Source: Akkermansia muciniphila
GTDB lineage: Bacteria > Bacillota > Clostridia > Oscillospirales > CAG-272
Assembly (NCBI GenBank): GCA_963611795.1
Contig: CAVDSZ010000007.1
Span: 21,014 to 85,013 of the forward strand
DNA length: 64,000 bases
Direction of reading: 5' to 3'
Shown here: one piece after another, positions 14,226-34,634 of the stretch
How positions within the stretch are numbered: position 1 is the stretch's first letter
How the letters are laid out: each line of letters begins with the position of its first letter
The notes under the pieces: model-generated
What the model saw: only the letters and a program-made list of their open reading frames with translations
What the model was told of the DNA's origin: nothing
Databases searched by the model: none
Made by a program: the position numbers and the translations under genes

Positions 14226-14494
14226 GTAAAAAAACAAAAAACACCCGTCTCTTTTGAGACGGATGACTCCGCGGTACCACTCAAATTCACGGTCGGAACC
14301 GTGCCCTCACAGGCGCTGACACGCCCCGGCGGAACTCTCGCGCGCCACACGGGAGACCCTACACGCGTCTGACGCGCTCGAACCTCCGGCTCAGGAGCCA
14401 TAGGCACATTCTCTCTGGGCGACCGACTCGCACCACACGTCGGCTCTCTTGGCACCCTCGGGGAAGACCCTCTCCCTCATCGCCTTGCTGATTT
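14226..14494 (-). promoter_or_regulatory. T-box leader (apparent Met specifier AUG) controlling metY-metA
   Basis: Minus-strand RNA shows a K-turn GAUGA, AGAGAG and GGUGCGA stem-I motifs, and a specifier bulge CCU-AUG-G (AUG at 14399-14401). The T-box motif AAUUUGAGUGGUACCGCGG is at 14269-14287. Terminator hairpin ccgtctc-aaaa-gagacgg plus U-run is at 14226-14264. Confidence 0.85.
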
Positions 14495-14969: not shown

Positions 14970-15246
14970 ATAAATGCGTGGATGGTATTATGTCGCCATC
15001 GTATGACCTACACAGAGAGCCGCCGGTCGGTGCAAGGCGGTGGGGTCGGATGACGACAGTCTCGTACCGGAGCAGGCGCCCCGAACCGCTGTCGCAGTAA
15101 GGGCACCCGGACGGATCCCGTCACAGATCCTCGGCTTGTCAGAGCCGTCAGAGCGGTCGCCCCCGGGGCGGCAATGTCGGGTGGTACCGTGGTTGCATCG
15201 CAATCATCCCGCAGAAGTCTCAGGACTTCTGCGGTTTTTGTTTTTT
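14970..15246 (+). promoter_or_regulatory. T-box leader, apparent Leu specifier CUC
   Basis: K-turn UGC-GUGGAU-GGUA pairs with UACC-GGA-GCA. AGAGAG and GGUGCAA motifs are present. The specifier bulge is AGU-CUC-G (CUC at 15061-15063). T-box motif GGGUGGUACCGUGG is at 15179-15192. Terminator stem ccgcagaagtc/gacttctgcgg plus U-run is at 15209-15246. Confidence 0.85.
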
Positions 15247-15279
15247 AACGTCAGTTTGTATGATCGGGAGGAGAGCAGA

Positions 15280-16674
15280 ATGAAACAGCAAAATATAAGA
15301 GTGGTGACGGTTTCGGACAGGACGCTCGCGGTGTGTGTCGACGGGCGCGAGGCGCCGTTAACGTTCCGTGAGCGGACACGGATTGCCGAGATTCTTTCGG
15401 GCGCCGGGGTGGACGCGATTGAACTCCCCGCCATGACCCGCCCGCGCGAGGAGACGGTCGTGAACCGCACGATTGCGCTCGCTGCCGGGGAGGTTGCCGT
15501 TAAGATTCCCGTGGCGTGCGAGGAGGGTGTTGCCGCGGCGTATGAGAGTGTCCGCGACGCCATTCACCCGGTTCTGCAGGTCGTCATGCCGACTTCTACG
15601 CTCGGTATGGAATACCGCTTACATAAAAAGGCACCCGCCGCCCGCGACCATGCCGTTTCGCTCTGCCGTGCGGCGCGGGCGATTGCCCCCGCCGTCGAGT
15701 TCGTGGCGGAGGACGCATCCCGCGCGGAGCCCGCTTTCCTTGCAGAGCTCATGCAGGCGGTCATCGCCGTCGGGGTCACTTCGTTTGTCCTTTGCGATGA
15801 CGCCGGGAACTGGCTCCCCGAGGAGGCGGCGGCGACCGTCCGGGCGCTTGTGACGCCCGCATGCCCGCTCCTGATCCGCCCCGCGATGTCGCTCGGGCTC
15901 GCGTCTGCGGTCGCCGCCGCGGCGCTCACGGCGGGTGCCGCCGGGGTCGTCACCGGCTTGGGCGGTGGTTCTTACACTGCGGCGGCACTCTCCGACCTGT
16001 TGACCGCCCGCGGCGAGACGCTGGGGCTATCCTCCCGCCTCGTCGCCACCGCCATTCACCGGGAGACGGAGGAGATTCACCGCACCGCCGGCGGCATCGG
16101 CGGGAAGCGGCAGGATCCTATCGCCGCACGCATCGCGCTCGGCGCGGACGCTACGCTCGGCGAGGTCTCCGACGCTTGTAACGCCCTCGGCTATGAACTC
16201 TCCGATGAGGATATTACCCATGTCGTGCGTGAGGTACAGCGTGTCGCAGAGAAGAAGGAGTCGATTGGCGCCCGAGAGCTGGAAGCCATTGTTGCCACCG
16301 CCGCCATGCAGGTGCCCTCGACCTACCACCTCGTGAGTTATCTCGTCAGTACAGGGAATGTGATTTCTCCTATGGCGGAAGTCACACTGAAAACAGGGGA
16401 GCGCACGCAGTCGGGGGTCTCCATGGGTGACGGTCCGATTGACGCGGCGTTCCGCGCGCTCGAGCAAATCATCGGGCACCACTATGAGCTCGACGATTTC
16501 GAGATTCAATCGGTGACGGAGGGGCGCGGCGCCGTCGGCTCCGCCCTCGTCAAGTTGCGTCACGACGGCAGACTGTACGCGGGGCAGGGCATCTCGACCG
16601 ATATCATCGGCGCGAGCGTGCGTGCCTACCTCAACGCTTTGAACAAGATTATCTATGAGGATATACGGGAATGA
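15280..16674 (+). CDS. 2-isopropylmalate synthase-like protein lacking catalytic residues but retaining the LeuA C-terminal (allosteric/dimerisation) domain
   Basis: HMGL-like TIM-barrel similarity, but DRTLAVCVD replaces DTTLRDGEQ and IRPAMSLGLA replaces the HxHxDxG metal motif. The C-terminus GVSMGDGPIDAAFRALEQII...SVTEGRGAVGSALVKLRHDGRLYAGQGISTDIIGASVRAYLNALNKI is a clear LeuA_dimer domain. ATG 15280 follows GGGAGGAG. The track start at 15040 reads through the T-box leader. Confidence 0.7.
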   Translation: MKQQNIRVVTVSDRTLAVCVDGREAPLTFRERTRIAEILSGAGVDAIELPAMTRPREETVVNRTIALAAGEVAVKIPVACEEGVAAAYESVRDAIHPVLQVVMPTSTLGMEYRLHKKAPAARDHAVSLCRAARAIAPAVEFVAEDASRAEPAFLAELMQAVIAVGVTSFVLCDDAGNWLPEEAAATVRALVTPACPLLIRPAMSLGLASAVAAAALTAGAAGVVTGLGGGSYTAAALSDLLTARGETLGLSSRLVATAIHRETEEIHRTAGGIGGKRQDPIAARIALGADATLGEVSDACNALGYELSDEDITHVVREVQRVAEKKESIGARELEAIVATAAMQVPSTYHLVSYLVSTGNVISPMAEVTLKTGERTQSGVSMGDGPIDAAFRALEQIIGHHYELDDFEIQSVTEGRGAVGSALVKLRHDGRLYAGQGISTDIIGASVRAYLNALNKIIYEDIRE

Positions 16675-19121
16675 AACTGGCTTTTTCAACGGCACTCGTG
16701 CCGTCTCCGACGTTTTTCGCACTCTGTCATACCGCCGCCGAGTACGGCTATGAGGGCATAGAACTGCATAATCTCGATGCCGTCGCCGCCCTCCCGGACG
16801 GTCCCTTCGGCACGGACGCCGCGGGCGCGCGGCGCAAGTTGCGGAACAGGCGTCTTTCAGTCTCGGCGCTGACCTGCCCGACCCCGGCGGACGGGACGGA
16901 AGTCTCGCGGCGAGAGATTGAGCGCTACTCTCTCGCGGCGTCCGATGCGGGCATTCCCGCCGTCATCGTCACGGTGGCGGGAGGTGCCGATCCCGCCCGC
17001 ATCGCCGCCTCTCTGCGCCCGGTCGCGGAACAGGGAGATGCCCGGTGTGTAAGGCTCCTCTTTGAGACGACCGGCGACCTCGCAAACACCGAGCGCCTGC
17101 TCGCGATTCTGCACACCTTTCGCGCCGTCGGCGTCGGCGCCGCGTGGAATATCCGCGCGACGTACTTTGAGGGCGGAGAGAGTGCCGAGACAACAATCAC
17201 CACCCTCGGCGCCTATATCGCCTATGTCCGTATCGGTGACCGCCGCGCGGGCGGGGACGTGTTGCTCGGGGAGGGGGAACTCCCTACCAGGGACTTTCTC
17301 GACGCGCTCCGGTCGCTGAACTATGACGGCTATTGCGCCTTTGATACGGCGGATATCGCCGACCCCGACCTTCTGCTCACGCACAGTGCCGCTTTCCTGC
17401 GTGCCCGCCTCGGCGTGGAGAAAAAGCGCCGCCTGTTGTCGAACCGGGCGGGGACCGGCACGTTCCCGTGGAAGAAGTATGAGGTCATTGATAAGACCTT
17501 TTCGCAGGTGCTTGACGAGATGGCGGAGACCTACCCCGACCAGTACGCCTTCCGTTACCCGACTCTCGACTATACCCGCACTTACCGCGCGTTCCGCGAG
17601 GATGTTGACCGTATCGCCGCGTCGCTGATTGCCCTAGGGGTGAAGCCGGGGTACCACGTCGCCGTCTGGGCGACGAACGTCCCGCAGTGGTTCCTGACCT
17701 TCTGGGCGGCGGTCAAGATTGGCGCCGTCCTCGTCACCGTGAATACCGCGTATAAGATTCAGGAGGCGGAATATTTGCTCCGCCAGTCGGATACCCATAC
17801 GCTCGTGATGATTGAAAACTGTAAGGATTCCGATTACCGCGGCATTATGGCGGAGCTCTGCCCGGAGTTGAAAGACAAAGCGCCGGAGGCGCCGCTCTAC
17901 GCGGAGCGCCTGCCGTTTCTGCGCCACATCGTGACCGTCGGCTTTTCGATGCCCGGCGCGCTTCCCTGGGAGCGTTTCTCCGACCTTGGCGCGACCGTCC
18001 CGCCCGAAGAAGTGCGGCGCCTCGCCGCCGGGGTGCGCCCCGACGACGTCGCGAATATGCAATACACCTCCGGCACGACCGGTTTCCCGAAGGGCGTCAT
18101 GCTGACGCATCGGAATATTGTCAATAACGGGAAGATTATTGGCGATCGTATGGACCTCTCCACCGCCGACCGCATGATGGTGCAGGTGCCGATGTTCCAT
18201 TGCTTCGGCATGGTGCTGACGATGACGTCCGTGATGACCCACGGCGGCACGCTCTGCCCGCTCCCGTACTTCTCGCCGAAGTCGTCACTCGCCTGTATCA
18301 CCGCGGAGCGCATCACGTGCTTCAACGGCGTGCCCACCATGTTCATCGCCATGTTCGCGCATGAAGATTTCGCGGGGACGGACTTTTCTCATGTCCGCAC
18401 CGGCATCATGGCGGGGGCGAACTGCCCGGCAGAGCTTATGCGCCGCGCCGCCCGTGAGATGCACATGACGGAGATTGTCAGCGTGTTCGGGCAGACGGAG
18501 GCATCGCCCGGCTGCACCATGGGTGAGGTCGGGGAGGATCTCGACCACCGCGTCGAGACGGTGGGCACCGCTTTCCCCGGGGTGGAGTGCAAAATCATCG
18601 ACCCCGAGACGGGGGAGGATTTGCCCGACGGGGAGAACGGCGAGTTTGTCGCCCGTGGCTTCAATATGATGAAAGGCTACTACAAAATGCCCCGCGCGAC
18701 GGCGGCGACCATTGACCGCGAGGGCTGGCTCCATACGGGCGATATCTGCTGCCGCACGCCGGAGGGGTACTTCCGCGTGACGGGGCGACTCAAGGACATG
18801 ATTATCCGCGGCGGGGAGAACCTCTACCCGCGCGAGATTGAGGAATTCTACCTCACGCACCCCAAGGTCAAGGACGCGCAGGTCGTCGGCGTGCCGGATG
18901 CGCGCTACGGCGAGGAAGCCTGTGCGTGGATTGTCCTGCATGACGGTGAGAGCGCGACGGAGGAGGAGATGCGCGACTTCGGGCGCGCACATATCGCGAG
19001 CCATAAGGTGCCGCGCTATTTCGTGTTCGTTCGTGCTTTTCCCATGAACGCAGCAGGGAAGATTCTGAAATACAAAATGCGCGAGACTATGATTGAGCGC
19101 CTCGGGCTCGCCGATTGCTGA
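16671..19121 (+). CDS. Fusion protein: xylose-isomerase-like TIM barrel (sugar-phosphate isomerase/epimerase, AP_endonuc_2 fold) + AMP-forming acyl-CoA ligase (FadD/YngI-like)
   Basis: The first ~250 aa show the TIM-barrel pattern (YGYEGIELHN...). The remainder carries the AMP-binding motifs MQYTSGTTGFPKGVMLTHRNI, GWLHTGD and PMNAAGKILK. Its ATG overlaps the upstream stop (ATGA at 16671-16674). Confidence 0.75.
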   Translation: MKLAFSTALVPSPTFFALCHTAAEYGYEGIELHNLDAVAALPDGPFGTDAAGARRKLRNRRLSVSALTCPTPADGTEVSRREIERYSLAASDAGIPAVIVTVAGGADPARIAASLRPVAEQGDARCVRLLFETTGDLANTERLLAILHTFRAVGVGAAWNIRATYFEGGESAETTITTLGAYIAYVRIGDRRAGGDVLLGEGELPTRDFLDALRSLNYDGYCAFDTADIADPDLLLTHSAAFLRARLGVEKKRRLLSNRAGTGTFPWKKYEVIDKTFSQVLDEMAETYPDQYAFRYPTLDYTRTYRAFREDVDRIAASLIALGVKPGYHVAVWATNVPQWFLTFWAAVKIGAVLVTVNTAYKIQEAEYLLRQSDTHTLVMIENCKDSDYRGIMAELCPELKDKAPEAPLYAERLPFLRHIVTVGFSMPGALPWERFSDLGATVPPEEVRRLAAGVRPDDVANMQYTSGTTGFPKGVMLTHRNIVNNGKIIGDRMDLSTADRMMVQVPMFHCFGMVLTMTSVMTHGGTLCPLPYFSPKSSLACITAERITCFNGVPTMFIAMFAHEDFAGTDFSHVRTGIMAGANCPAELMRRAAREMHMTEIVSVFGQTEASPGCTMGEVGEDLDHRVETVGTAFPGVECKIIDPETGEDLPDGENGEFVARGFNMMKGYYKMPRATAATIDREGWLHTGDICCRTPEGYFRVTGRLKDMIIRGGENLYPREIEEFYLTHPKVKDAQVVGVPDARYGEEACAWIVLHDGESATEEEMRDFGRAHIASHKVPRYFVFVRAFPMNAAGKILKYKMRETMIERLGLADC

Positions 19122-19167
19122 GGCAACCGGGAAAAGTGATTGTAAATACCAAATAAGGAAGTAATTC

Positions 19168-19977
19168 GTGAGAGAGATTATTGACGCGCATTGTCATATC
19201 TACCCCGACAAGATTGCCGAAAAGGCGGCGAGGGCAATCGGGGCGTTCTACCGTATCCCGATGCGTTACGACGGACGTATGGAGACCATGCTCCGGGAGG
19301 GCTCGGCGGCAGGAATCGGTCGCTATCTTGTTTTTTCCGTCGCCACCAAGCCGACGCAGACCGTTTCAATCAACGACTATATCGTCGAGACCGTTGCCCG
19401 CCATGAGGGGCAGATGCTGGGGCTCGGCACCATTCACCCGGATAACACCGACCCGGGCGCCCACGTCGAGTATATGCTCGCACACGGGCTCCGCGGAGTG
19501 AAGCTCCACCCGGATATTCAGGAGGCCGCGCTCGACGATCCGCGCTGTATGCGTATTTTCGAGGCGTGTGAGGGCAGGCTCCCCGTGCTCCTCCACACGG
19601 GCGACCGCCGCTTCGACTATTCCAACCCGAACAGGCTCTGCCCGGTGTTGGAGCGTTTCCCGCGCCTGACGGTCATCGGGGCGCATTTCGGCGGTTATTC
19701 CGTCTGGCAGAGCGCGACCGAGATGCTCGCCGGGCATGAGAACCTCTATGTCGATTGCTCGTCCTCTCTCTTTGCCATGTCTCCCGAGGAGGGCAGACGC
19801 ATTGTGCGTGCCTGGGGGGCGGATCGCGTGCTGTTCGGCACCGATTATCCCATGTGGAACCCGACGGAGGAGGTCGCCCGCGTGGAAGCGCTCGGACTCA
19901 CAGAGGAGGAGAACGAACAGGTGTTCCACAAAAATGCCGAAAAACTTTTCGGTTTTGAGAGTCATCTTGGGGCTTGA
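19168..19977 (+). CDS. Amidohydrolase_2-type (ACMSD/LigI-like) metal-dependent TIM-barrel hydrolase/decarboxylase family protein
   Basis: IIDAHCHIYPD (HxH metal motif), ...GVKLHPD..., ...LLHTGD..., ...FGTDYPMW. GTG start follows AAGGAAG. Confidence 0.7.
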   Translation: MREIIDAHCHIYPDKIAEKAARAIGAFYRIPMRYDGRMETMLREGSAAGIGRYLVFSVATKPTQTVSINDYIVETVARHEGQMLGLGTIHPDNTDPGAHVEYMLAHGLRGVKLHPDIQEAALDDPRCMRIFEACEGRLPVLLHTGDRRFDYSNPNRLCPVLERFPRLTVIGAHFGGYSVWQSATEMLAGHENLYVDCSSSLFAMSPEEGRRIVRAWGADRVLFGTDYPMWNPTEEVARVEALGLTEEENEQVFHKNAEKLFGFESHLGA

Positions 19978-20003
19978 CAGCCCCCTGGGCGGTATGCTAT
20001 ACT
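19974..20003 (+). promoter_or_regulatory. Promoter of the Ile T-box unit
   Basis: TTGACA (19974-19979, containing the upstream stop TGA at 19975-19977), 18 nt spacer, TATACT (19998-20003). Confidence 0.65.
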
Positions 20004-20009
20004 CTTGTC

Positions 20010-20279
20010 ATCCGAAAAGACTGTGACGAAGACGGAAGTATCGTTTAATCCCAGAGAGCCGGCGGGCGGTGTGAGCCGGTGTGAGGACGGTACGTGTTCC
20101 TATCCCTTCCGAGTCGGAGTCCCCAAAGCGTGTTTTGCCGGTAGGGGTTCCCGTGACGCCGCGTGAGTGCAAAGGGCTTGTTTGAGCCTGAGGGCACGGC
20201 TTTTGCCGTGAATTTGAGTGGTACCGCGGGTCTATCAGACTCGTCTCAAAGCATTTTTGAGATGGGTCTTTTTGTTTTC
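20010..20279 (+). promoter_or_regulatory. T-box leader, apparent Ile specifier AUC
   Basis: AGAGAG and GGUGUGA stem-I motifs are present. The specifier bulge is CCU-AUC-C (AUC at 20102-20104), aligned with the CCU-AUG-G bulge of the Met leader. T-box motif AAUUUGAGUGGUACCGCGG is at 20211-20229. Terminator plus U-run is at 20237-20279. The C after the codon is atypical, since a purine is expected there. Confidence 0.8.
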
Positions 20280-20306: not shown

Positions 20307-22568
20307 ATGAACGAATCCACAATGCTCCGTATCGGGGAGATCGCGACGCGTATCCGCGGGATGCGGGAGATTCTCGGCTGGTCGGAGGCGGACATGGCGG
20401 AGAAGACGGGGCTCACCACGGAGGAATACGCCGCCTATGAGGGCGGCGGGGTCGATCTGCCGTTCACCTTCATTCATAACTGCGCGCTCGCGTTCGGAAT
20501 GGAACTCACGGAACTGCTGGAAGGGCGGGAGCCGAATTTGTCCTCCTATACCGTGACGCGCCGCGGAGAGGGAGAGGATACCGCCCGCGAGGCAGGAATC
20601 TTAATCCGCAATCTCGCGCCCCGCTTCCGCTCCAAGATTGCGGAGCCCTATTGGGTGCGGTATGAGTATGACGAGAAGCTCCAACATCAGCCGATCCACC
20701 TGACGCGCCACTCGGGGCAGGAGTTCGACCTGATTCTGCGCGGGCACCTGAAAGTGCAGGTCGGCGACCACATCGAGTTGCTCCGCGAGGGCGACAGCAT
20801 TTATTATGACAGCGCCACGCCCCACGGCATGATTGCCGTCGACGGGGAGGACTGCGTGTTCTGCGCCGTTGTCCTACCGGGGGCGGAGCATACCGCCGCG
20901 GCGGCACCCGCCGCGGTCGCCGTCCCCGATACGGGAGATCTTGTTGTCGATCGTTTTGTACAGACAGAGACGGACGGGAGCGGCGCGCTCACAGGCGTTT
21001 CTTTCAGAAATACGGAACACTTTAATTTTGGCTTTGACATCATCGACGCCATCGCCGCGAAATGCCCGGAGAAACTCGCGCTCCTGCACCTCGACGCGGA
21101 CAAAAACGAGCGTCGCTTCACCTATCGCGACCTGAAAACGGCGTCGAATCGGTGCGTCAACTACTTCCGTTCGCTCGGTATCGGGCGCGGGGATAAGGTC
21201 ATGCTGGTGCTGAAACGGCATTGCCAGTTCTGGTTCGCGATGATTGCGCTCCATAAGCTCGGCGCCGTCGCAATCCCCGCCACGTCGCAACTGAAAGAAC
21301 ATGATTTCACCTACCGCTTCGACGCCGCGGGTGTGGACGCCATTCTCGCGACGGCGGACGACGGCGTACCGGCTTGCGTGGACAGCGCCGCCGCGTCTTG
21401 CCCGACGCTGAGGACCAAGATTCTCGTCGGCGGCGCGCGCCCGGGCTGGCACGATTTCGACAGCGAATATACGCTCTATTCGGGGCACTACGACCGCCCC
21501 GAGGACGCCCCCGGCGGGGAGGAGACGGCACTCATGTTCTTCACCTCCGGCACGACGGGGAACTCCAAAATGGCGGCGCATAAACACACCTATGCTCTCG
21601 GGCACTTCGTGACGGCGAAATACTGGCATTGCTGCGAGCGCGACGGGCTCCATTTCACCATTTCCGACACCGGTTGGGGTAAGTCGCTCTGGGGGAAGTT
21701 CTACGGGCAGTTCATGTGCGAGGGCGCGGTCTTTGTCTACGATTTCCGCCGCTTCTCGGCGCCCGACCTCCTGCCGCTCTTTGCGAAGTACGGCATCACG
21801 ACCTTCTGCGCGCCGCCGACCATGCTGCGCCTGATGATTAAAGAGGATCTTTCCTCCTACGACCTCTCGTCCGTTCGACATATGACGACGGCGGGCGAGG
21901 CGCTTAACCCCGAGGTGCACAGACAGTTTTTCCTCTCGACGGGGCTCTCAATCATGGAGGGCTTCGGGCAGACCGAGACGACGCTCACGATTGCCAACCT
22001 TGCGGGGACGACTCCGAAGATTGGTTCCATGGGCAAGGCGTCTCCGCAGTATAAAATTGACCTCTTGGATGCGGACGGGAACCCCGTCGGCGTCGGTGAG
22101 GTCGGAGAGATTTGTATCGACGTTTCGGGGGGCGTCCCCGTCGGACTTTTCGAGGGCTACTACCGCGACCCCGAGCGCACACGTGAGGTATGGCATGACG
22201 GCTATTACCATACGGGCGACACCGCCTGGCGCGACGAGGACGGCTATTTCTTCTATGTCAGCCGCGTGGACGATGTAATCAAATCCTCCGGTTATCGAAT
22301 CGGACCGTTCGAGATTGAGAGTGTCATTATGGAACTGCCGTACGTCCTTGAGTGCGGCGTCTCTGCGGCGCCCGACGAGGTGCGCGGGCAGGTTGTGAAA
22401 GCCAGCATCGTGCTGACGCGCGGCACCGAGCCGACCGAGGCGTTGAAAAAAGAAATTCAGGACTATGTCAAGACGCATACCGCGCCGTATAAATACCCTC
22501 GTATTGTGGTTTTCCGAGAGGAGCTCCCCAAGACCGTGAGCGGTAAGATTCGACGCAATCTTTTGTGA
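20307..22568 (+). CDS. Fusion protein: XRE-family HTH + cupin domain + AMP-forming (medium-chain ACSM-like) acyl-CoA synthetase, paralogue 1
   Basis: HTH_3: IRGMREILGWSEADMAEKTGLTTEEYAAYEGG. Cupin: HSGQEFDLILRGHLKVQVGD...GDSIYYDSATPHGM. AMP-binding: MFFTSGTTGNSKMAAH, YHTGDTAWRDEDGYFFYVSRVDDVIKSSGYRIGPFEIE, PKTVSGKIRR. The ATG at 20307 is the first after the T-box terminator. Confidence 0.8.
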   Translation: MNESTMLRIGEIATRIRGMREILGWSEADMAEKTGLTTEEYAAYEGGGVDLPFTFIHNCALAFGMELTELLEGREPNLSSYTVTRRGEGEDTAREAGILIRNLAPRFRSKIAEPYWVRYEYDEKLQHQPIHLTRHSGQEFDLILRGHLKVQVGDHIELLREGDSIYYDSATPHGMIAVDGEDCVFCAVVLPGAEHTAAAAPAAVAVPDTGDLVVDRFVQTETDGSGALTGVSFRNTEHFNFGFDIIDAIAAKCPEKLALLHLDADKNERRFTYRDLKTASNRCVNYFRSLGIGRGDKVMLVLKRHCQFWFAMIALHKLGAVAIPATSQLKEHDFTYRFDAAGVDAILATADDGVPACVDSAAASCPTLRTKILVGGARPGWHDFDSEYTLYSGHYDRPEDAPGGEETALMFFTSGTTGNSKMAAHKHTYALGHFVTAKYWHCCERDGLHFTISDTGWGKSLWGKFYGQFMCEGAVFVYDFRRFSAPDLLPLFAKYGITTFCAPPTMLRLMIKEDLSSYDLSSVRHMTTAGEALNPEVHRQFFLSTGLSIMEGFGQTETTLTIANLAGTTPKIGSMGKASPQYKIDLLDADGNPVGVGEVGEICIDVSGGVPVGLFEGYYRDPERTREVWHDGYYHTGDTAWRDEDGYFFYVSRVDDVIKSSGYRIGPFEIESVIMELPYVLECGVSAAPDEVRGQVVKASIVLTRGTEPTEALKKEIQDYVKTHTAPYKYPRIVVFREELPKTVSGKIRRNLL

Positions 22569-22576
22569 AAAAACAG

Positions 22577-22605
22577 TTGACAGCAGATACAAAGTGTGAT
22601 ATAGT
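22577..22605 (+). promoter_or_regulatory. Promoter of the Val T-box operon
   Basis: TTGACA (22577-22582), 17 nt spacer, TATAGT (22600-22605). It begins 9 nt after the upstream stop. Confidence 0.7.
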
Positions 22606-22611
22606 GTACTA

Positions 22612-22889
22612 AATCACCCAAAGGCGTTGAAGAAAAGGGCGCGTAGCAGGTTCCCTCTCAGAGACATGGCGGTTGGTGCGAGCCATGAGGGGCGGATACG
22701 TGTTTGTAGTTTCCGAGCCGGGAGGAAGAAAGGGATTTCCGAGTAGACCCTCCCCGTCATTGCCGCGTCAGAGCATAGAGTTTGCTAGAACTCGATAAGG
22801 GCACGACGGAACGTCGTGAATTTGAGTGGTACCGCGGGTCTTTTTCGGCTCGTCTCAAAGTCATACTTTGAGGCGGGCCTTTCTGTTTT
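22612..22889 (+). promoter_or_regulatory. T-box leader, apparent Val specifier GUA
   Basis: The lower helix pairs GGC...GAAA with UUUC-CGA-GCC. AGAGA and GGUGCGA motifs are present. The specifier bulge is UUU-GUA-G (GUA at 22706-22708). T-box motif AAUUUGAGUGGUACCGCGG is at 22819-22837. Terminator plus U-run is at 22847-22889. Confidence 0.85.
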
Positions 22890-22906
22890 CCCGCCGGGGA
22901 GGGATT

Positions 22907-25207
22907 ATGCAGACCAAAACCAAAACAGGACTGGAAGAGAAGATTCGCGAGATGGCGGGGCGTATCCGCGCCCTGCGGGAAATCGTCGGGTTTTCCACCG
23001 CCGAAATGGCGGAGAAGACGGACGTCGAGGAGGCGGAATACATCGCCTGCGAGGCGGGGCGGCAGGATTTGAACTTCGCGTTCCTTTATCGTTGTGCACA
23101 GGCGCTCGGCGTCGACGTCACGGATATTATCGAGGGGACGGGACCCCGCCTTTCCTCCTACACGGTCACGCGCCGCGGGGAGGGGCAGAAGATTGAACAG
23201 GCGCACGGCATGATTTATTACAATCTTGCCGCCGCTTTCAAGAACCGCATTGCCGAACCGCTGTTTGTCTGCTCGGTCTATTCCGAGGAGGCGCAGCACC
23301 GAGACATTGAACTCACGACACACATCGGGCAGGAGTGTGACATCATCGTCAGCGGCACGCTCAAAGTGCAGGTCGGTGAACACGTCGAGATTCTCCGCGC
23401 AGGCGACAGTATCTATTATGACAGCGCGACGCCCCACGGTATGATTGCGACCGAGGGGGCAGATTGTCTCTTCTATGCGATTGTCCTGAACCCGGCAGGA
23501 GAGCCGATTGCCAACCTGACGCACAGCGGTGTGCGCGAGTTTACCACCCTGCCGCCGAAGTTCCCCCCCAGCCGCAAGTGGGTGTGGGAGGACTATATCG
23601 ACGTCCGAGAGGGAGAGAACGGCGCGCTCGAGTCTCTCTCGTTTAAAAACACCGATACGTTCCATTTCGCCTTTGATATCGTGGACAGGATTGGACGGGA
23701 GCAGCCGGGGAAACTCGCGATGCTTCACCTCGACCGCGAGCACACGGAGCGCCGCTTCACGTTCGCCGACCTCTCCCGTGCTTCCAACCGCGCGGCGAAC
23801 TATTTCCGCTCTCTCGGCATCGGGCGCGGCGACCGCGTCCTGCTCCTGCTCAAGCGGCATTACCAGTTTTGGATTGCCCTGCTCGGGCTGATGAAGATCG
23901 GCGCCGTCTCCATTCCGGCGCCTTGCCAGCTCCGCGCGCATGATATCTCCTACCGCCTCGGCGCGGCGGGTATCTCCGCCGTCGTTGCTACGGCGGATGG
24001 CGATATTGCCACCGAGGTGGACGCCTCCACGGCGGAGGCGGGCGTGCCGCTGACCCGTATCCTCGTCGACGGCAAGCGCGAAGGCTGGCGCGACTTCGAC
24101 GGGGAGTACCCGCTCTTTACCGGGAAGTTCGAGCGCCCGGCGGACGCCCCGACGGGAGACAGTCTGATGCTCATGTATTTCACCTCCGGCACGTCGGGAA
24201 ACCCGAAGATTGCCGCGCATGATTACCGTTATCCCCTCGGGCATTTCCATACCGCGAAGTATTGGCACTGTGTGAACCCGGACGGTTTGCACCTCACCGT
24301 CGCCGACACCGGCTGGGCAAAAGCGGCGTGGGGGAAGATTTTCGGACAATGGCTATGTGAAGCACCCATTTTCGTCTATGATTTCGACAGATTCGACGCG
24401 GCGGATATCCTGCCGATGTTTGCCAAATATCATATCACCACCTTCTGTGCCCCGCCGACAATCCTCCGCATGATGGTCAAGGAGGATATCTCTCGCTACG
24501 ACCTTTCGTCCGTCGAGCATATGACGACGGCGGGTGAGGCACTCAATCCCGAGGTGTTTCGTCTCTTTGAGGCGGCGACCGGACTACAGATTATGGAGGG
24601 CTTCGGGCAGAGCGAGACGACCTGCGTGATTGCGAACCTCGTCGGCACCCGCGCCCGCCTCGGCTCGATGGGGAAGCCGGTACCGCTCTACCGCGTTGCA
24701 TTGCTCGACGGGGAGGGCAGACCCGTACCGGACGGCGAGGTCGGAGAAATCTGTATCGACGTCTCGGGGGGCGCGCCCTGCGGGCTGTTCCGCGGCTACT
24801 ACCGTGACGACGAAAAAACGGTGGAGTGCTGGCACGACGGTTACTACCATACGGGCGATACCGCATGGCGTGACGAGGACGGCTATTACTGGTATGTCGG
24901 GCGCACCGACGACCTCATCAAGTCCTCCGGCTACCGCATCGGACCCTTTGAGATCGAGAACGTCCTCATGGAACTGCCGTACATTCTCGAATGCGGCGTT
25001 TCCGCCGCGCCCGACCCGGTGCGCGGACAGGTGGTGAAAGCCAGCATCGTCCTCACCCGCGGCACCGCCCCGACGGAGGAACTCAAAAAAGAAATCCAGA
25101 ATTACGTCAAGGAACGTACCGCCCCCTATAAATACCCCCGTATCGTCGTGTTCCGGGAGGAACTCCCCAAGACGACGAGCGGTAAGATTCGGAGAAATCA
25201 ACTGTAA
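22907..25207 (+). CDS. Fusion protein: XRE-family HTH + cupin domain + AMP-forming acyl-CoA synthetase, paralogue 2
   Basis: Same three-module architecture as 20307-22568, and by eye roughly two-thirds identical to it. ATG 22907 follows GGGGAGGG. The track start at 22826 reads through the T-box terminator. Confidence 0.8.
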   Translation: MQTKTKTGLEEKIREMAGRIRALREIVGFSTAEMAEKTDVEEAEYIACEAGRQDLNFAFLYRCAQALGVDVTDIIEGTGPRLSSYTVTRRGEGQKIEQAHGMIYYNLAAAFKNRIAEPLFVCSVYSEEAQHRDIELTTHIGQECDIIVSGTLKVQVGEHVEILRAGDSIYYDSATPHGMIATEGADCLFYAIVLNPAGEPIANLTHSGVREFTTLPPKFPPSRKWVWEDYIDVREGENGALESLSFKNTDTFHFAFDIVDRIGREQPGKLAMLHLDREHTERRFTFADLSRASNRAANYFRSLGIGRGDRVLLLLKRHYQFWIALLGLMKIGAVSIPAPCQLRAHDISYRLGAAGISAVVATADGDIATEVDASTAEAGVPLTRILVDGKREGWRDFDGEYPLFTGKFERPADAPTGDSLMLMYFTSGTSGNPKIAAHDYRYPLGHFHTAKYWHCVNPDGLHLTVADTGWAKAAWGKIFGQWLCEAPIFVYDFDRFDAADILPMFAKYHITTFCAPPTILRMMVKEDISRYDLSSVEHMTTAGEALNPEVFRLFEAATGLQIMEGFGQSETTCVIANLVGTRARLGSMGKPVPLYRVALLDGEGRPVPDGEVGEICIDVSGGAPCGLFRGYYRDDEKTVECWHDGYYHTGDTAWRDEDGYYWYVGRTDDLIKSSGYRIGPFEIENVLMELPYILECGVSAAPDPVRGQVVKASIVLTRGTAPTEELKKEIQNYVKERTAPYKYPRIVVFREELPKTTSGKIRRNQL

Positions 25208-25218
25208 GGAGAGATACC

Positions 25219-26301
25219 ATGTTAGAAATCCGTTTGACAAGAACCGCAACCCCGAAAGAAAAACCGCAGGACGAAAGCGCGCTCGGTTTCGGGAAGATTT
25301 TCACCGACCATATGTTTCTCGCCGATTATACGGAGGGGGAGGGGTGGCATGACGCCCGCATCGTCCCCTACGGTCCACTTTCGCTTTCTCCCGCCGCATC
25401 GGTGCTGCATTACGGCACCGAGATTTTCGAGGGCATGAAAGCGTATCGCACGGCATCGGGCGAAATCCGTCTGTTCCGCCCCATGGAGAATATCCGCCGC
25501 ATGAATCATAGTGCGGAGCGCTTGTGCCTGCCGGAGGTGGACGAGGCGTTCATGCTCCGCGCGCTGGATACGCTGGTGAATCTCGAACGCGACTGGGTGC
25601 CGAACAACGTTGGCACGTCTCTCTATATTCGCCCGTTCATGTTCGGCGCAGACCCTCACCTCGGCGTTCACGCCGTCCATGCGGCGACCCTCTGCATCAT
25701 CTGCTCGCCCGTCGGCGCCTATTACGCCGAGGGCATTAACCCGGTGAAGATTGCGATTGAGCACGAGGACGTCCGCGCCGTGCGCGGTGGTACGGGCTAT
25801 GCGAAGTGCGGCGGGAACTATGCCGCCAGCCTGCGTGCCGGTAAGCGTGCGGAGGAAAAGGGCTATACACAGGTGCTTTGGCTCGACGGCGTCGAGCGTA
25901 AGTACATCGAGGAAGTCGGCTCCATGAACGTCATGTTCAAGATTGCGGGGAAGATTGTCACCCCTGCGCTCACCGGCTCCGTCCTCCCCGGTATCACGCG
26001 CAAGTCCTGTATCGAATTGCTCCGTTCGTGGGGTTACGAGGTCGAAGAGCGTCTGCTCTCGGTCGGGGAACTGATTGGCGCCGCAGAGGACAGGACGCTC
26101 GAGGAGGCGTGGGGCACCGGCACGGCGGCGGTCGTCTCTCCGATCGGCACCCTTGCCTACGAGGGGAAGGAGCATATGGTCGGCGGCGGCGGCATCGGCG
26201 CCGTGACGCAGAAACTCTACGATACGCTGACGGGGATTCAGTGGGGTACGCTCCCGGACACCTTCGGCTGGTGCCACACGGTGGGGAAACCATGCGACTG
26301 A
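25219..26301 (+). CDS. ilvE: Branched-chain amino acid aminotransferase
   Basis: GFGKIFTDHMF...YGTEIFEGMKAYR...GGTGYAKCGGNYAAS... is the class-IV BCAT signature. AAGGAGAG lies before the ATG. Confidence 0.9.
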   Translation: MLEIRLTRTATPKEKPQDESALGFGKIFTDHMFLADYTEGEGWHDARIVPYGPLSLSPAASVLHYGTEIFEGMKAYRTASGEIRLFRPMENIRRMNHSAERLCLPEVDEAFMLRALDTLVNLERDWVPNNVGTSLYIRPFMFGADPHLGVHAVHAATLCIICSPVGAYYAEGINPVKIAIEHEDVRAVRGGTGYAKCGGNYAASLRAGKRAEEKGYTQVLWLDGVERKYIEEVGSMNVMFKIAGKIVTPALTGSVLPGITRKSCIELLRSWGYEVEERLLSVGELIGAAEDRTLEEAWGTGTAAVVSPIGTLAYEGKEHMVGGGGIGAVTQKLYDTLTGIQWGTLPDTFGWCHTVGKPCD

Positions 26302-26960
26302 CCGAGTTTCCGCACCGGCGGGTCACACTCTTCGCCGGGCATTACGGGAGCGGGAAGACTAATCTCGCCGTCAACTATGCGCTCGCCCTCCGCGAGAGGG
26401 GGGAAAGCGTGACGGTCGCCGATATGGATATTGTCAACCCGTATTTCCGTACCAAGGACAGCGCCGAGGTGCTCAGTGCGGCGGGGATACGCCTGATTTC
26501 CCCTGCGTTTGCGAACAGTAACGTCGATTTGCCGGCGCTCCCGGCGGCGCTCTATCTGCCAATCGTCGCCCGCGATACGCTCGCGATTCTGGACATCGGC
26601 GGTGATGACCGCGGGGCGTATGCCCTCGGGCGGTATGCACCGGATATTCTCACAGAGGGCAATTTTGAAATGATTTTCGTCGTGAACTTTTGCCGCCCGC
26701 TGACAGAGACGACGGAGGACGCGCTCGGGGTCATGCGGGAAATTGAGACGGCGGGCGGGATTCCGTTTACCGCGATTGTCAACAATTCCAACCTCGGCAC
26801 CGAGACGACCCCTGAAACGGTGCGTGCGACGCAAGCGCGCGCCGGAGAACTCTCGCGCCTCTCGGGGCTCCCGCTCCTGTTTACCTCCGCCGAGGCGCGC
26901 ATTGCCGACGCGGTACCTGAACCGCTCTTCGCGCTCAATCTGCAAAAGAAGTATATTTGA
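26292..26960 (+). CDS. Small SIMIBI-class (MinD/ParA/CooC-like) P-loop NTPase of unknown role
   Basis: Walker A: FAGHYGSGKTNLAVN. Walker B-like: LAILDIGGDD. 222 aa counted from ATG 26292, which overlaps the ilvE 3' end by 10 nt. The track start at 26028 lies inside ilvE in another frame. Confidence 0.6.
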   Translation: MRLTEFPHRRVTLFAGHYGSGKTNLAVNYALALRERGESVTVADMDIVNPYFRTKDSAEVLSAAGIRLISPAFANSNVDLPALPAALYLPIVARDTLAILDIGGDDRGAYALGRYAPDILTEGNFEMIFVVNFCRPLTETTEDALGVMREIETAGGIPFTAIVNNSNLGTETTPETVRATQARAGELSRLSGLPLLFTSAEARIADAVPEPLFALNLQKKYI

Positions 26961-26974
26961 TAAAGGAGACTGCC

Positions 26975-27181
26975 ATGGCGAAAGTGACTTTTGCGACGGA
27001 CCTTTGTAAAGGCTGTGGACTGTGTGTCGCCGCCTGCCCGCGGGGCATCATCGCGCTCTCGCGTGAAAAAATCAATCAGAAAGGACATTCTCCCGCCGAG
27101 GTGACGGACGGGTCGAAGTGCATCGGTTGTGCTTTCTGCGCGACGATGTGCCCCGACTGCGTAATCACGGTGGAGAAGTGA
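26975..27181 (+). CDS. 2-oxoacid:ferredoxin oxidoreductase delta subunit (2x[4Fe-4S] ferredoxin-type)
   Basis: Two CxxCxxCxxxCP clusters (CKGCGLCVAACP and CIGCAFCATMCP). ATG 26975 follows AAGGAG. Confidence 0.85.
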   Translation: MAKVTFATDLCKGCGLCVAACPRGIIALSREKINQKGHSPAEVTDGSKCIGCAFCATMCPDCVITVEK

Positions 27182-27190
27182 GGTGATACA

Positions 27191-28258
27191 ATGGCGGAAA
27201 AAGTATTGATGAAGGGGAATGAGGCAATCGCCGAGGCGGCAATCCGCGCCGGGTGCCGTCACTATTTCGGATACCCAATCACCCCCCAGACCGAGGTCGC
27301 CGCGTATATGGCGAAGCGTATGCCGAAGATCGGCGGCGTGTTCCTGCAAGCGGAGAGCGAGATCTCTGCGATTAACATGGTGTACGGCGTCGCCGGGACA
27401 GGGAAGCGCGTGATGACCTCTTCCTCCAGCCCCGGGATTTCGCTGAAACAGGAGGGAATCTCCTATATTGCCGGGGCAGACCTGCCCGCGCTCATTGTCA
27501 ACGTCCAGCGCGGCGGACCGGGGCTCGGCGGGATTCAGCCGTCGCAGTCGGATTACTTCCAGGCGACCAAAGGCGGTGGTCACGGCGACTACCATCTGAT
27601 TGTTCTCGCGCCTGCCTCCGTGCAGGAAATGGCGGACATGACGGTGCACGCCTTCAATCTTGCCGATACATACAGAATGCCCGTCATGCTCCTCGCAGAC
27701 GGTACCATGGGGCAGATGATGGAGCCCGTGACGCTCCCGGAGGCGGTCGAGCCGCGCACCGCAGAAACATCGTGGACGGTGACGGGGACGGAGGGCAAAC
27801 GTCCGCATCATATCATCAATTCGCTGTACCTGAAGCCGGAGATTCTCGAGAAAACCAATATCGAGCGCTTTGCGCGTTACCGCACGGTCGAGGAGCGCGA
27901 GCCGCTGTTCGAAACCTATATGATGGAGGACGCGGAGTATTGCGTCGTCGCGTTCGGTATCGCCGCGCGCGTGTCCAAGAACGCCGTCAAGGCGGCGAGA
28001 GACATGGGTATCAAGGTCGGACTCATTCGTCCGATTACCCTCTGGCCGTTCCCGAAGGCGGCGCTTGCGGCGTCGGCAGAGCACGTGCGGGCGTTCCTCT
28101 CGGTGGAACTCTCCATGGGGCAGATGATTGAGGACGTGGAACTCGCAATCCGCTGCCGCCGCCCGGTGTCGCTCTGCTCGCGTACCGGCGGGATGATTCC
28201 CACGCCCGAGGAAGTTTTGACGGCAATTCGAAACATGATGGGAGGAGACAAGGCATGA
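27191..28258 (+). CDS. 2-oxoacid:ferredoxin oxidoreductase alpha subunit (VorB/KorA-type)
   Basis: MKGNEAIAEAAIRAGCRHYFGYPITPQTE...ESEISAINMVYGVAGTG... is the canonical OFOR alpha N-terminus. Confidence 0.85.
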   Translation: MAEKVLMKGNEAIAEAAIRAGCRHYFGYPITPQTEVAAYMAKRMPKIGGVFLQAESEISAINMVYGVAGTGKRVMTSSSSPGISLKQEGISYIAGADLPALIVNVQRGGPGLGGIQPSQSDYFQATKGGGHGDYHLIVLAPASVQEMADMTVHAFNLADTYRMPVMLLADGTMGQMMEPVTLPEAVEPRTAETSWTVTGTEGKRPHHIINSLYLKPEILEKTNIERFARYRTVEEREPLFETYMMEDAEYCVVAFGIAARVSKNAVKAARDMGIKVGLIRPITLWPFPKAALAASAEHVRAFLSVELSMGQMIEDVELAIRCRRPVSLCSRTGGMIPTPEEVLTAIRNMMGGDKA

Positions 28259-29004
28259 CTGTATTTGAAAAACCGAAATCCCTGACGGACGCGCCGCTGC
28301 ATTATTGCCCCGGCTGTACGCACGGGATTATACACCGCCTTGTCGCACAGGCGATTGACACGCTCGGGATTGAGGGGAAGACGATTGGCGTCGCCCCCGT
28401 CGGCTGCGCCGTCATGGCGTACGACTATTTTGCCTGTGACATGGTGGAGGCGGCGCACGGCAGAGCCCCTGCGGTCGCGACCGGCATTAAGCGCGCACTT
28501 CCCGAAAATATCGTATTTACTTATCAGGGAGACGGCGACCTTGCCTCCATCGGCATGGCGGAGACGGTACACGCCGCAACTCGGAACGAGAATATCACCG
28601 TGATCTTTGTCAATAACGCGATTTACGGCATGACGGGCGGGCAAATGGCGCCGACGTCGCTCCCCGGACAGGTCACGCAGACCTCCCCCTATGGTCGTGA
28701 CGTCGCGACGGTCGGCTATCCGATCCGTGTTTCGGAGATGCTCGCCGCCCTCGACGGACCTGCCTATATTCGGCGCGTCGCCGTCAACAACGTGAAGCAC
28801 GTGAAAGAGGCGGAGAAAGCGATTTTGAAAGCCTTCCGAAACCAGGTGGAGGGGCGCGGATTTTCGCTTATTGAAGTGATTTCTTCCTGCCCGACCAACT
28901 GGGGCATGACCCCCGAGGCGGCGCTTCAGTGGGTAGAGGATAAAATGATTCCGTATTATCCGCTCGGCGTGTATAAGGACAAGACAGAGGAGGGTACACG
29001 ATGA
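28255..29004 (+). CDS. 2-oxoacid:ferredoxin oxidoreductase beta subunit (TPP-binding)
   Basis: YCPGCTHGI...GDGDLASIGMAE...NNAIYGMTGGQ TPP motif. Start overlaps the alpha-subunit stop. Confidence 0.85.
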   Translation: MTVFEKPKSLTDAPLHYCPGCTHGIIHRLVAQAIDTLGIEGKTIGVAPVGCAVMAYDYFACDMVEAAHGRAPAVATGIKRALPENIVFTYQGDGDLASIGMAETVHAATRNENITVIFVNNAIYGMTGGQMAPTSLPGQVTQTSPYGRDVATVGYPIRVSEMLAALDGPAYIRRVAVNNVKHVKEAEKAILKAFRNQVEGRGFSLIEVISSCPTNWGMTPEAALQWVEDKMIPYYPLGVYKDKTEEGTR

Positions 29005-29528
29005 CGTATCACATTCTGATTGCGGGCTTCGGCGGGCAAGGGGTGCTTTTTGCCGGTAAGTTCCTCACATACCTCGGTATGATGGCGGGGAAAGAGGTAA
29101 GCTGGCTGCCGTCCTACGGACCCGAGATGCGCGGCGGCACCGCGAATTGTAGCGTGATTCTCTCCGACGACCCCGTCGGTTCGCCGATTGTGTCGCACCC
29201 CGACGTCCTCGTTGTGATGAATCTGCCCTCGCTCGATAAATACGAGGGGGAGGCGGTGCCGGGGGCAAAACTCTTCGTCGACAGTACGCTGATTGCGCGG
29301 AAAGTTGCGCGCACCGACGTCACGCCCTACTATCTGCCCGCGACCGAGATGGCGCGCGCGGCGGGGATTCCGACGCTTGCCAACATGATGCTGGTCGGGA
29401 AGGTGTTGCGCGAGGTCGGGATTCCTTTCGATCATGTGGAAGCGGCGCTCACGAAAGTTGTCTCCGCCCGCCACGCGGATTTGTATGACGCGAACTTCCG
29501 CGCCCTCCGCACGGGCTACGAGAGTTAA
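29001..29528 (+). CDS. 2-oxoacid:ferredoxin oxidoreductase gamma subunit
   Basis: ILIAGFGGQGVLFAGKFL...SYGPEMRGGTANCSV. Start overlaps the beta-subunit stop. Confidence 0.85.
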   Translation: MTYHILIAGFGGQGVLFAGKFLTYLGMMAGKEVSWLPSYGPEMRGGTANCSVILSDDPVGSPIVSHPDVLVVMNLPSLDKYEGEAVPGAKLFVDSTLIARKVARTDVTPYYLPATEMARAAGIPTLANMMLVGKVLREVGIPFDHVEAALTKVVSARHADLYDANFRALRTGYES

Positions 29529-31924: not shown

Positions 31925-32044
31925 CACAAATTTCCTTTTTCCGTTTTCTTTAGTATCGCGGTGGCTGTATCGACTATACACCCCGCCTTTAACACGGCTA
32001 GTGTATCATGTATTTCCTATAATTGCAATAGGAATTTAAGAAAA

Positions 32045-34211: not shown

Positions 34212-34431
34212 GAAAAAGTCCTTTCCGCTGACGAGGGAACGACTTTGCCGTTCGTCCCGCGCGTTCTGTATTGATATCAGTGTTACATTTTACGGTCTTA
34301 CTATAACAAAACAAAAGAGGGAATGCAATGTTTTTTACATATGTTTTACCTCGAAGAGCTTTGCTTGCCCCCGCCCGCCGCAATCACATTCCGCGAGTGC
34401 GCTTTTTCCTCCGAAAATATCAAAAAAACTG

Positions 34432-34460
34432 TTGACATTTTGCTTTTGCTATGCTATACT
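34432..34460 (+). promoter_or_regulatory. Promoter of tRNA-Tyr
   Basis: TTGACA (34432-34437), 17 nt spacer, TATACT (34455-34460). Confidence 0.7.
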
Positions 34461-34482
34461 CATCAAGTCAGCAAACGAATAT

Positions 34483-34567
34483 GGGGGAATTCCCGAGCGG
34501 CCAAAGGGGGCAGACTGTAAATCTGTTGTCCATGACTTCGCTGGTTCGAATCCAGCTTCCCCCACCA
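34483..34567 (+). tRNA. tRNA-Tyr: tRNA-Tyr (anticodon GUA), long variable arm, encoded CCA
   Basis: Acceptor stem GGGGGAA/TTCCCCC. The anticodon stem-loop is GCAGA-CUGUAAA-UCUGU. The T-arm is GGTTCGAATCC. The discriminator is A, followed by CCA at 34565-34567. Confidence 0.9.
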
Positions 34568-34634
34568 GATTGATTACACGATTCCGCGCGTTCGAGTCTT
34601 TCAACGACCAACTGTGCGGGATAATGAATAAAAA

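Follow-up and report, generated by a model that had tools for sequence, protein, structure and literature searches.

BirA, NadR and PutA are trigger enzymes, in which a metabolic enzyme carries a fused DNA-binding domain, and BirA is itself adenylate-forming. HppE and Psf4 combine a helical domain that resembles a helix-turn-helix (HTH), and does not bind DNA, with a cupin bearing a 2-His-1-Glu site. Branched short-chain fatty acids surround gut and rumen anaerobes at millimolar concentrations, and the conversion of such acids to amino acids by reductive carboxylation is established rumen physiology. Their salvage into isoleucine (Ile), valine (Val) and leucine (Leu) is an old physiological observation whose gene-level control is poorly described; in Prevotella, the reverse route from branched acids to amino acids is still termed unproven (PMC7709123). 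Here, we describe two neighbouring genes, A and B, in a 64,000-nucleotide stretch of contig CAVDSZ010000007.1 (hereafter, the window), which join a DNA-binding-type fold to a metabolic enzyme, as BirA, NadR and PutA do. In each protein, an XRE-type HTH and a cupin, together referred to as the N-module, precede a complete AMP-forming acyl-coenzyme A (acyl-CoA) synthetase of the Macs type. The module proved to be the long-standing neighbour of this synthetase family, and we tentatively propose that its target is the enzyme and not DNA.

Among solved structures, PDB 3ETC is closest to the synthetase part (637 bits; about 50% identity over about 540 residues, by Foldseek 50%). This is MacsMa of Methanosarcina acetivorans, which prefers 2-methylbutyrate, and which forms and then releases or breaks down the adenylates of non-preferred acids (PMC10455477). 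Its solved chain is without an XRE-cupin module, and neither a T-box nor a vor operon is linked to its physiological role. The top NCBIfam model for both A and B is MbcS (NF047394), at 422 and 426 bits against an equivalog cut-off of 850; because the scores fall so far below this value, A and B are MbcS relatives rather than equivalog members. The MbcS profile is 525 positions long and covers no added N-terminal module. MbcS of S. aureus is reported to activate 2-methylbutyrate and isobutyrate (PMC10026030, PMC11167679). That enzyme serves branched fatty-acid synthesis, whereas the route of A and B leads to amino acids.

As the first-pass annotation had read them, both genes run from HTH through cupin to AMP-binding enzyme without a stop or frameshift, and their coordinates proved exact (Table 1). 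Pfam confirmed the succession of domains, with borderline scores for the HTH at residues 12-79 of both proteins (HTH_19 at residues 15-73 of A, 28.6 bits, slightly below the cut-off of 30.2; HTH_31 at residues 15-72 of B, 27.9 bits against a cut-off of 27, with HTH_19 and HTH_3 matching too). Cupin_2 was matched at residues 133-188 of A (39.3 bits) and 133-192 of B (41.1 bits; cut-off 27.2). In the enzyme part, AMP-binding was matched at residues 249-619 of A (205 bits, cut-off 29.9) and 263-632 of B (222 bits), and AMP-binding_C at residues 669-747 of A (73 bits, cut-off 24.5) and 682-760 of B (74 bits). The core ANL motifs are legible in both proteins (TSGTTGN(S/P)K, GFGQ(T/S)ET, YHTGD, DD(V/L)IKSSGYRIGP and PKT(V/T)SGKIRRN), and in an alignment of 49 sequences they are invariant, including the catalytic Lys of motif A10. 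A and B are 62% identical over their full length, close to the two-thirds estimated earlier by eye; identity rises to 68% in the synthetase part and drops to about 55% across the N-terminal 190 residues.

The AlphaFold2 model of full-length A has a predicted local distance difference test score (pLDDT) of 80.4 and a predicted template-modelling score (pTM) of 0.62. It contains five helices over residues 3-72 (pLDDT 82-97), a beta-barrel over residues 90-190 and a complete ANL fold from about residue 206, and low confidence is restricted to the linker at residues 193-205. The N-module modelled alone reached a pLDDT of 86.4, and its HTH aligns with the 434 repressor; an XRE fold followed by a cupin barrel, as first supposed, is thus what the prediction returns. 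Because the pTM is 0.62, the placement of the module on the synthetase is not fixed by the model. The linker had been described as Ala/Pro-rich, which is right for A (AAAAPAAVAVP) and wrong for B, whose linker differs, and across the family this segment is poorly conserved.

The fusion extends far beyond the window. Species-representative genomes, one per species, were queried with four fused sequences, and at least 594 stretches matched the N-module; in all 80 of the loci examined among these, the module was fused to the synthetase. The 80 loci belong to gut and rumen Acutalibacteraceae, Christensenellaceae, Oscillospiraceae, Ruminococcaceae and their relatives, and the nearest of the loci examined (L001), from a metagenome-assembled genome (MAG) of Clostridia, shows 79-87% identity. 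Among the matches listed in full-length searches, 120 clusters per protein, all were 750-783 residues long with the same domains; those with a name were called only 'AMP-binding protein' and came from MAGs of Clostridia, Oscillospiraceae, Eubacteriales or Ruminococcaceae. In dozens of species the layout recurs, with a Leu operon, then an A-type gene, then a B-type gene with orfX, vorDBAC and ilvE. The ratio of non-synonymous to synonymous substitution rates (dN/dS) was 0.056 for the cupin, much like the 0.059 of the synthetase, as against 0.12 for the HTH and 0.25 for the linker (residues 193-212), values that are rough because dS, at about 1.2-1.7, is near saturation. With hundreds of species carrying it and all of its domains under purifying selection, the fusion is indeed old and maintained.

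Where the module came from is indicated by its free-standing relatives. An exhaustive N-module search returned 1983 relatives at E <1e-3 and, beyond fused proteins and their fragments, these include many stand-alone proteins of 183-195 residues with 33-46% identity to the module. Around the closest of them, 80 metagenome loci were inspected, of which 53 were analysable. In 50 of the 53, a gene for an XRE-cupin protein of about 190 residues is followed on the same strand by a gene for a Macs-type synthetase of about 550 residues, 48-56% identical to the synthetase part in the window. Stop and start overlap by 4 nucleotides in ten loci and by 1 nucleotide in three, the gap is <40 nucleotides in most others, and many of the pairs adjoin orfX-vorDBAC, either divergently or downstream. 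Owners of the split form are Candidatus Methanomassiliicoccus intestinalis (WP_020448726.1), Methanomethylophilaceae and Thermoplasmatales, as well as Senegalimassilia (Actinomycetota), Acutalibacteraceae / Oscillospiraceae and other Clostridiales. Given that the nearest stand-alone genes directly precede a distinct synthetase gene of the Macs type, what the fusion has joined is an old gene pair that spans domains of life. What the first-pass annotation had no means of knowing is that the module derives from an ancestral gene neighbour of these synthetases, and is not a recruited stand-alone repressor.

In a neighbour-joining tree of 189 modules, drawn without support values, 128 of the 129 fused forms fall into one clade, and the lone 'split' member inside this clade resembles a frameshifted gene. 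Taken together, the data suggest that the fusion arose essentially once and was then duplicated into Ile-linked and Val-linked copies. One fused gene (L130, 6001-8280) has a module that nests among the split forms, and may represent a second, independent fusion. In Senegalimassilia, a 90%-identity cluster mixes a 193-residue XRE-cupin protein with many 597-residue entries named 'AMP-binding protein', which may reflect a different gene call or another form of fusion.

A and B are T-box controlled, as the first-pass annotation had supposed; each has a strong sigma-70 promoter and a leader of its own, with an Ile specifier before A and a Val specifier before B. The T-box matches cover the full-length model (RF00230), yet all four leaders in the window score slightly below its gathering score of 93 and were retrieved by E-value. 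The UGGUACCGCG box and the terminator hairpins are present in the leaders of A and B. Specifiers were read in a fixed register, namely the codon, one base, a four-base helix and then NGAG. By this reading, AUC occupies the specifier position in 61 of 73 A-type loci and GUA or GUC in 37 of 44 B-type loci, while CUC is the commonest reading before the LeuA-like gene in related genomes. A TTGACA/TATAAT pair equivalent to the promoter of A precedes the leader in 64 A-type loci. Promoter-like hexamer pairs also occur within the genes, at near-equivalent sites of the two paralogues (20806-20833 and 23418-23445); they sit inside a conserved cupin stretch ending PHGMI (residues 167-176 of A, 171-180 of B), and most likely are a by-product of the conserved coding sequence.

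The genes that follow B are those that synthesis of branched-chain amino acids from branched short-chain acids would be expected to need. Both IlvE and VorB (560 bits, NCBIfam cut-off 399) exceed curated cut-offs, VorD is a two-cluster ferredoxin, and with the conservation of the cluster and the matching specifiers, the proposed context, synthesis of Ile and Val from branched acids, is supported. The orfX gene is a constant companion of vorDBAC, in the fused loci of bacteria as in the split loci of archaea, and one possibility is a role in maturation of the oxidoreductase. In the route that we envisage, A (with 2-methylbutyrate) or B (with isobutyrate) would convert acid, ATP and CoA to acyl-CoA, VorDBAC would reductively carboxylate the acyl-CoA to the 2-oxoacid, and IlvE would transaminate the latter to Ile in the A route or Val in the B route. 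The leader of each gene would read uncharged tRNA-Ile (A) or tRNA-Val (B) and thereby set transcription.

To compare the two types, 55 Ile-type and 32 Val-type proteins were aligned. In the synthetase part, a sole position separates them, Gly458 in A and Ala471 in B, which aligns with Val310 of E. coli Acs; Trp414 of Acs is Gly in both A and B. We take Val310 and Trp414 to be residues lining the acyl pocket of Acs. Replacement of the acetate-pocket Trp by Gly is as expected with larger acids, and Gly for a C5 acid and Ala for a C4 acid would fit at the separating position. Identity to MacsMa, pocket residues and operon context all point to branched C4/C5 acids as substrates, with 2-methylbutyrate likely for A and isobutyrate likely for B.

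By contrast with the catalytic domain, the N-terminal part is rich in type-specific residues. Of the 12 strict signature positions that distinguish Ile-type from Val-type proteins, 11 lie before residue 213, with five in the cupin (E95/A, I98/M, I100/Y, Y115/L and V188/I), five in the HTH, all of them conservative, and the remaining one where the linker ends; the per-column table holds many further type-specific cupin positions. Because the signature positions concentrate there, pathway specialisation appears to reside in the cupin and not in the catalytic domain, as would be expected if the cupin recognises a pathway-specific small molecule. His135, Glu139 and His173 show no variation across fused and split forms and are also aligned in PuuR; with these metal-type residues and its Pfam match, the domain is predicted to be a Cupin_2 metal-binding barrel. 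The earlier suggestion that the cupin senses a pathway metabolite fits both the enzyme-like constraint on this domain and its type-specific positions.

We propose that the XRE-fold and metal-cupin module is the ancestral partner protein of the synthetase, and that a single main fusion event, before the A/B duplication, would have joined it to the enzyme. The ligand of the cupin would be a small molecule specific to the pathway (the acid, the 2-oxoacid or the amino acid), and the signal would pass to the synthetase at the protein level, through allosteric or oligomeric control. Such control would be fast, and its target would be an entry reaction with a price of two ATP equivalents. As in HppE, the HTH would be a scaffold, structural or for oligomerisation, and not an operator-binding domain. 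A protein-level role is favoured because the T-box leaders already tie transcription to tRNA charging. That A and B are the salvage entry enzymes for Ile and Val, with an ancestral XRE-cupin partner that senses a metabolite and acts on the enzyme, is the reading we prefer, although our confidence in it falls slightly short of even. A broader formulation, which we hold a little more loosely, is that XRE-cupin proteins of this kind are a hitherto overlooked type of regulatory subunit of AMP-forming acyl-CoA synthetases and not transcription factors. The metal-cupin, as sensor of a branched-chain metabolite, would gate the ATP-consuming entry into Ile and Val salvage, the pair would extend from Methanomassiliicoccales to Actinomycetota and be fused in gut Clostridia, and the Leu-linked ligase would use the LeuA_dimer protein, and likewise its TIM barrel, for this purpose.

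The chief alternative, which we consider rather unlikely, is a true trigger enzyme, in which the HTH binds an operator and the salvage genes are repressed or released according to the ligand state of the cupin or the catalytic state of the synthetase. The promoters would then respond to substrate or product in addition to T-box attenuation, with enzyme and repressor united in one protein as in BirA, NadR and PutA. The catalytic domain it calls for is present, and the Pfam matches, the predicted five-helix fold, the match to the 434 repressor and the homology of the module to PuuR-type repressors agree with it, as does the purifying selection on the HTH. The surface of the domain, however, does not resemble that of a DNA-binding protein. 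Over residues 8-75, fused modules have a mean net charge of -5.4 and split modules one of -6.6, as compared to +4 for the 434 repressor domain and about +1 for the HTH region of PuuR (counted by hand from the aligned sequence); over residues 24-55, the averages are -4.7 and -5.7. At the position equivalent to K40 of the 434 repressor, 128 of 129 fused modules have Asp, as do 54 of 60 split modules; at the R43 equivalent, Phe is present in 128 of the fused and 47 of the split modules, and the equivalents of Q28, Q29 and S30 are Glu, Asp or variable. In true regulators, the recognition helix is usually the best-conserved part. Here, conservation within the module is lowest on the exposed faces of helices 2 and 3, with positions 27-29, 32, 38, 39, 42 and 43 among the most variable, whereas the buried residues Tyr41, Glu45 and Arg20 are invariant. 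No conserved polar or basic recognition surface of the PuuR type was found on helices 2-3 and the following loop.

The promoters gave a similar picture. We counted exact 5-mer inverted repeats with spacers of 0-12 in promoter sets and in block shuffles. In this search, which covered these promoter sets and not the genome elsewhere, the 64 A-type promoters shared no inverted repeat save A/T runs, and none was enriched in the 40 B-type promoters. No inverted repeat was common to the upstream regions of 38 split genes without T-boxes, and nothing operator-like was seen by eye in the divergent intergenic regions between orfX and the XRE-cupin gene. The element TTTTT-N1-3-AAAAA just upstream of the -35 box, present in 16 of the 64 A-type promoters as compared to at most 3 in the shuffles, might be taken for an operator. 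However, it resembles a terminator T-run followed by an UP element, which is probably what it is, and neither the B-type promoters nor the window contain it. Its carriers include L002, L006, L023, L027, L037, L042, L043, L057, L062 and L067. A regulator made at the level of an abundant metabolic enzyme in several hundred species would, moreover, be unusual. The earlier designation as 'trigger enzymes', in the sense of transcriptional control through the HTH, thus finds no support in these searches, and we infer that the HTH probably does not bind DNA.

Several observations nevertheless weigh against our proposal and lend weight to operator binding. The HTH fold and its Arg20-Glu45 pair are kept under purifying selection, and the PuuR-type relatives that share the His/Glu/His triad are true repressors. 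In archaeal and other split loci without T-boxes (38 loci), the XRE-cupin gene heads the operon, and it often faces orfX-vorDBAC across a short intergenic region, which is the classic layout of a regulator. The acidity of the whole protein somewhat weakens the charge argument, and operators may be short, degenerate or elsewhere in the genome. Overlapping genes are frequent in compact genomes and are no proof of a complex. Finally, the proposal presumes both a ligand and a contact between module and synthetase, and the modelled pTM leaves the arrangement of the domains loose.

A second alternative, which we regard as improbable, makes the cupin a catalytic or substrate-handling metallo-domain similar to HppE, concerned with capture, proofreading or hydrolysis of wrong adenylates and not with sensing. 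Such a domain would perform or assist a step on the acid, the acyl-adenylate, the acyl-CoA or the 2-oxoacid. HppE and Psf4 are the top fold matches of the module (E about 1e-14 to 1e-10, 20-23% identity), the His/Glu/His triad is invariant, the constraint on the cupin equals that on the synthetase, and the Leu-linked third ligase bears an AP_endonuc_2 TIM barrel, another metal-enzyme fold, at the same place. However, template-modelling scores (TM-scores) of about 0.5 reflect shared two-domain architecture only, the triad does not point to catalysis because the repressor PuuR has the same residues, and the route requires no extra chemical step. HppE chemistry is oxidative, moreover, which is unlikely in strict anaerobes. 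A helper function on adenylates is conceivable because MacsMa forms adenylates of non-preferred acids and then releases them or breaks them down (PMC10455477).

Of comparable improbability is a purely structural or oligomerisation appendage without ligand response, on which folding or assembly of the synthetase would depend. The obligate partnership across domains of life and the variable HTH surface are consistent with this idea. It does not account for the invariance of the cupin interior residues and the metal-type triad, nor for E95/A, I100/Y and Y115/L, which are 100% conserved within the Ile and Val types; such conservation speaks for recognition of something pathway-specific.

An assembly or annotation artefact, or a recent pseudogene-like read-through, can be dismissed: a single MAG with a broken B-type gene is all that speaks for it, and it is refuted by the clusters that are full length with the same domains (>240 listed at 750-769 residues), the 80 fused species-representative loci, the 129 fused modules over all loci, the calling of the same 753- and 766-residue products in an independent assembly of a near-identical strain, and the purifying selection on every domain. 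In the broken case (L011, 3345), the gene lies in two pieces of 109 and 641 residues, probably owing to a frameshift in that MAG. A relative 98% identical (P0404) has an identical gene order.

Table 1. Features of the salvage cluster in the window (positions are those of the window; aa, amino acids)
Feature	Position	Strand	Remarks
Leu operon	14970-19977		T-box specifier CUC; conserved in many related genomes
LeuA-like protein	15040-16674		Weak HMGL-like match and LeuA_dimer allosteric domain; stop overlaps next start
816-aa fusion	16671-19121		AP_endonuc_2 (xylose-isomerase-like TIM barrel) and FadD-type acyl-CoA synthetase
Amidohydro_2 protein	19168-19977		Follows the 816-aa fusion
Sigma-70 promoter of A	19974-20003	+	TTGACA-18-TATACT, TG-extended
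T-box leader of A	20014-20251	+	Rfam 86.0 bits, E 9.7e-18; specifier AUC (Ile) at 20102-20104
Terminator hairpin and T-run, leader A	20237-20279	+	15-pair stem, then TTTTGTTTTC
Gene A	20307-22568	+	753 aa, ATG to stop; XRE-HTH, cupin and Macs-type acyl-CoA synthetase; Ile-linked
A: five-helix XRE-type HTH, acidic	20313-20522	+	aa 3-72
A: cupin barrel	20574-20876	+	aa 90-190; invariant His135/Glu139/His173
A: disordered, poorly conserved linker	20883-20921	+	aa 193-205; pLDDT <50
A: AMP-forming acyl-CoA synthetase part	20922-22565	+	aa 206-753; Gly458 at acyl-pocket position
Sigma-70 promoter of B	22577-22605	+	TTGACA-17-TATAGT
T-box leader of B	22618-22860	+	Rfam 90.5 bits, E 6.5e-19; specifier GUA (Val) at 22706-22708
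Terminator hairpin and T-run, leader B	22847-22889	+	
Gene B	22907-25207	+	766 aa, ATG to stop; same architecture as A; Val-linked
B: domains, by alignment to A			HTH about aa 7-76; cupin about aa 94-194; synthetase from about aa 219; Ala471 at pocket position
IlvE branched-chain aminotransferase	25219-26301	+	NCBIfam PRK13357, 477 bits, cut-off 307; same operon as B
orfX, P-loop NTPase	26289-26960	+	223 aa; weak CbiA/ParA/ApbC-like matches; overlaps ilvE end
VorD	26975-27181	+	2-Oxoisovalerate-type 2-oxoacid:ferredoxin oxidoreductase
VorB	27191-28258	+	Same oxidoreductase
VorA	28255-29004	+	Same oxidoreductase
VorC	29001-29528	+	Same oxidoreductase

The Leu operon upstream of A completes the cluster (Table 1). 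In Methanomethylophilaceae-type contigs (L100, 94-2292; L111, 8733-11039; L112, 66-2306), a homologue of the Leu-linked FadD-type ligase occurs without the TIM barrel, and is preceded by a distant XRE-cupin gene of its own, with 28-30% identity to the module in the window; in these contigs, a cupin partner seems to go with each of the three branched-chain ligases. Elsewhere in the window, a minus-strand T-box leader (14252-14489) with an AUG (Met) specifier precedes a pyridoxal-phosphate-type enzyme of Cys/Met metabolism (12895-14184, minus strand). Two open reading frames of 661 residues (29864-31849) and 441 residues (31850-33175) have no Pfam or NCBIfam match, and the coding strand there is ambiguous because a minus-strand frame of 762 residues overlaps both. 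The guanine-plus-cytosine content falls from about 0.63 to 0.49-0.55 from about 34000-34600 to the end of the window, with a tRNA gene (34483-34564) adjoining, which may mark the boundary of an island.

The window holds a complete salvage cluster under three-fold T-box control; in hundreds of Clostridia that are abundant and for the most part uncultured, the entry enzymes have a fixed partner that resembles a sensor. Should the module act directly on the enzyme, this would be a new form of ANL-enzyme regulation, alongside lysine acetylation, and would call for caution in taking the annotation 'XRE family transcriptional regulator' as proof of DNA binding. If the module binds DNA instead, A and B would be new trigger enzymes layered on a riboswitch. 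In either case, the natural split versions provide ready-made separate subunits.

Compared with the known systems, the locus combines familiar parts in an unfamiliar way. E. coli PuuR is alike in the order of its two domains, its size (about 185 residues), the Arg-Glu pair of its HTH and the His/Glu/His of its cupin. However, it is only 19% identical to the module, its HTH is about neutral while that of the module is acidic, and its recognition helix reads THSAISTIE as against (S/T)xEEYxxxE; PuuR is a free repressor, whereas the module is the fixed partner of an enzyme. SinR, the other comparator of the first-pass annotation, is without a cupin. By sequence, the sole PDB match of the N-module is the 434 repressor HTH. 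The fold search does not separate an enzyme-like from a regulator-like module, because HppE/Psf4 and a Vibrio HTH_3 protein were returned with equal weight, and the triad does not separate the two either, being present in PuuR. HppE and Psf4, the non-haem-iron epoxidases of fosfomycin synthesis, are enzymes of aerobic actinomycetes and pseudomonads with an oxidative chemistry, and are not linked to acyl-CoA synthetases. BirA, NadR and PutA differ from A and B in their proven operator binding and conserved recognition helix, as neither an operator nor a conserved basic surface was found for A and B. The leaders share all elements with those of the T-box-regulated branched-chain genes of Bacillota, and the predicted product of each operon agrees with its specifier (Ile, Val or Leu); the known leaders, however, control tRNA synthetases or the classical ilv/leu pathway, while those in the window control salvage enzymes (acyl-CoA synthetase, 2-oxoacid:ferredoxin oxidoreductase and IlvE). 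Taken singly, synthetase and leaders are ordinary, the former as a Macs/MbcS-group enzyme and the latter as T-boxes, and the module lies within the broad XRE-cupin group. Our literature searches returned no paper on an HTH-cupin-acyl-CoA synthetase fusion or gene pair and, as far as these searches show, what is new is the fixed partnership of XRE-cupin protein and synthetase, split or fused, and its place in a three-fold T-box-controlled salvage cluster.

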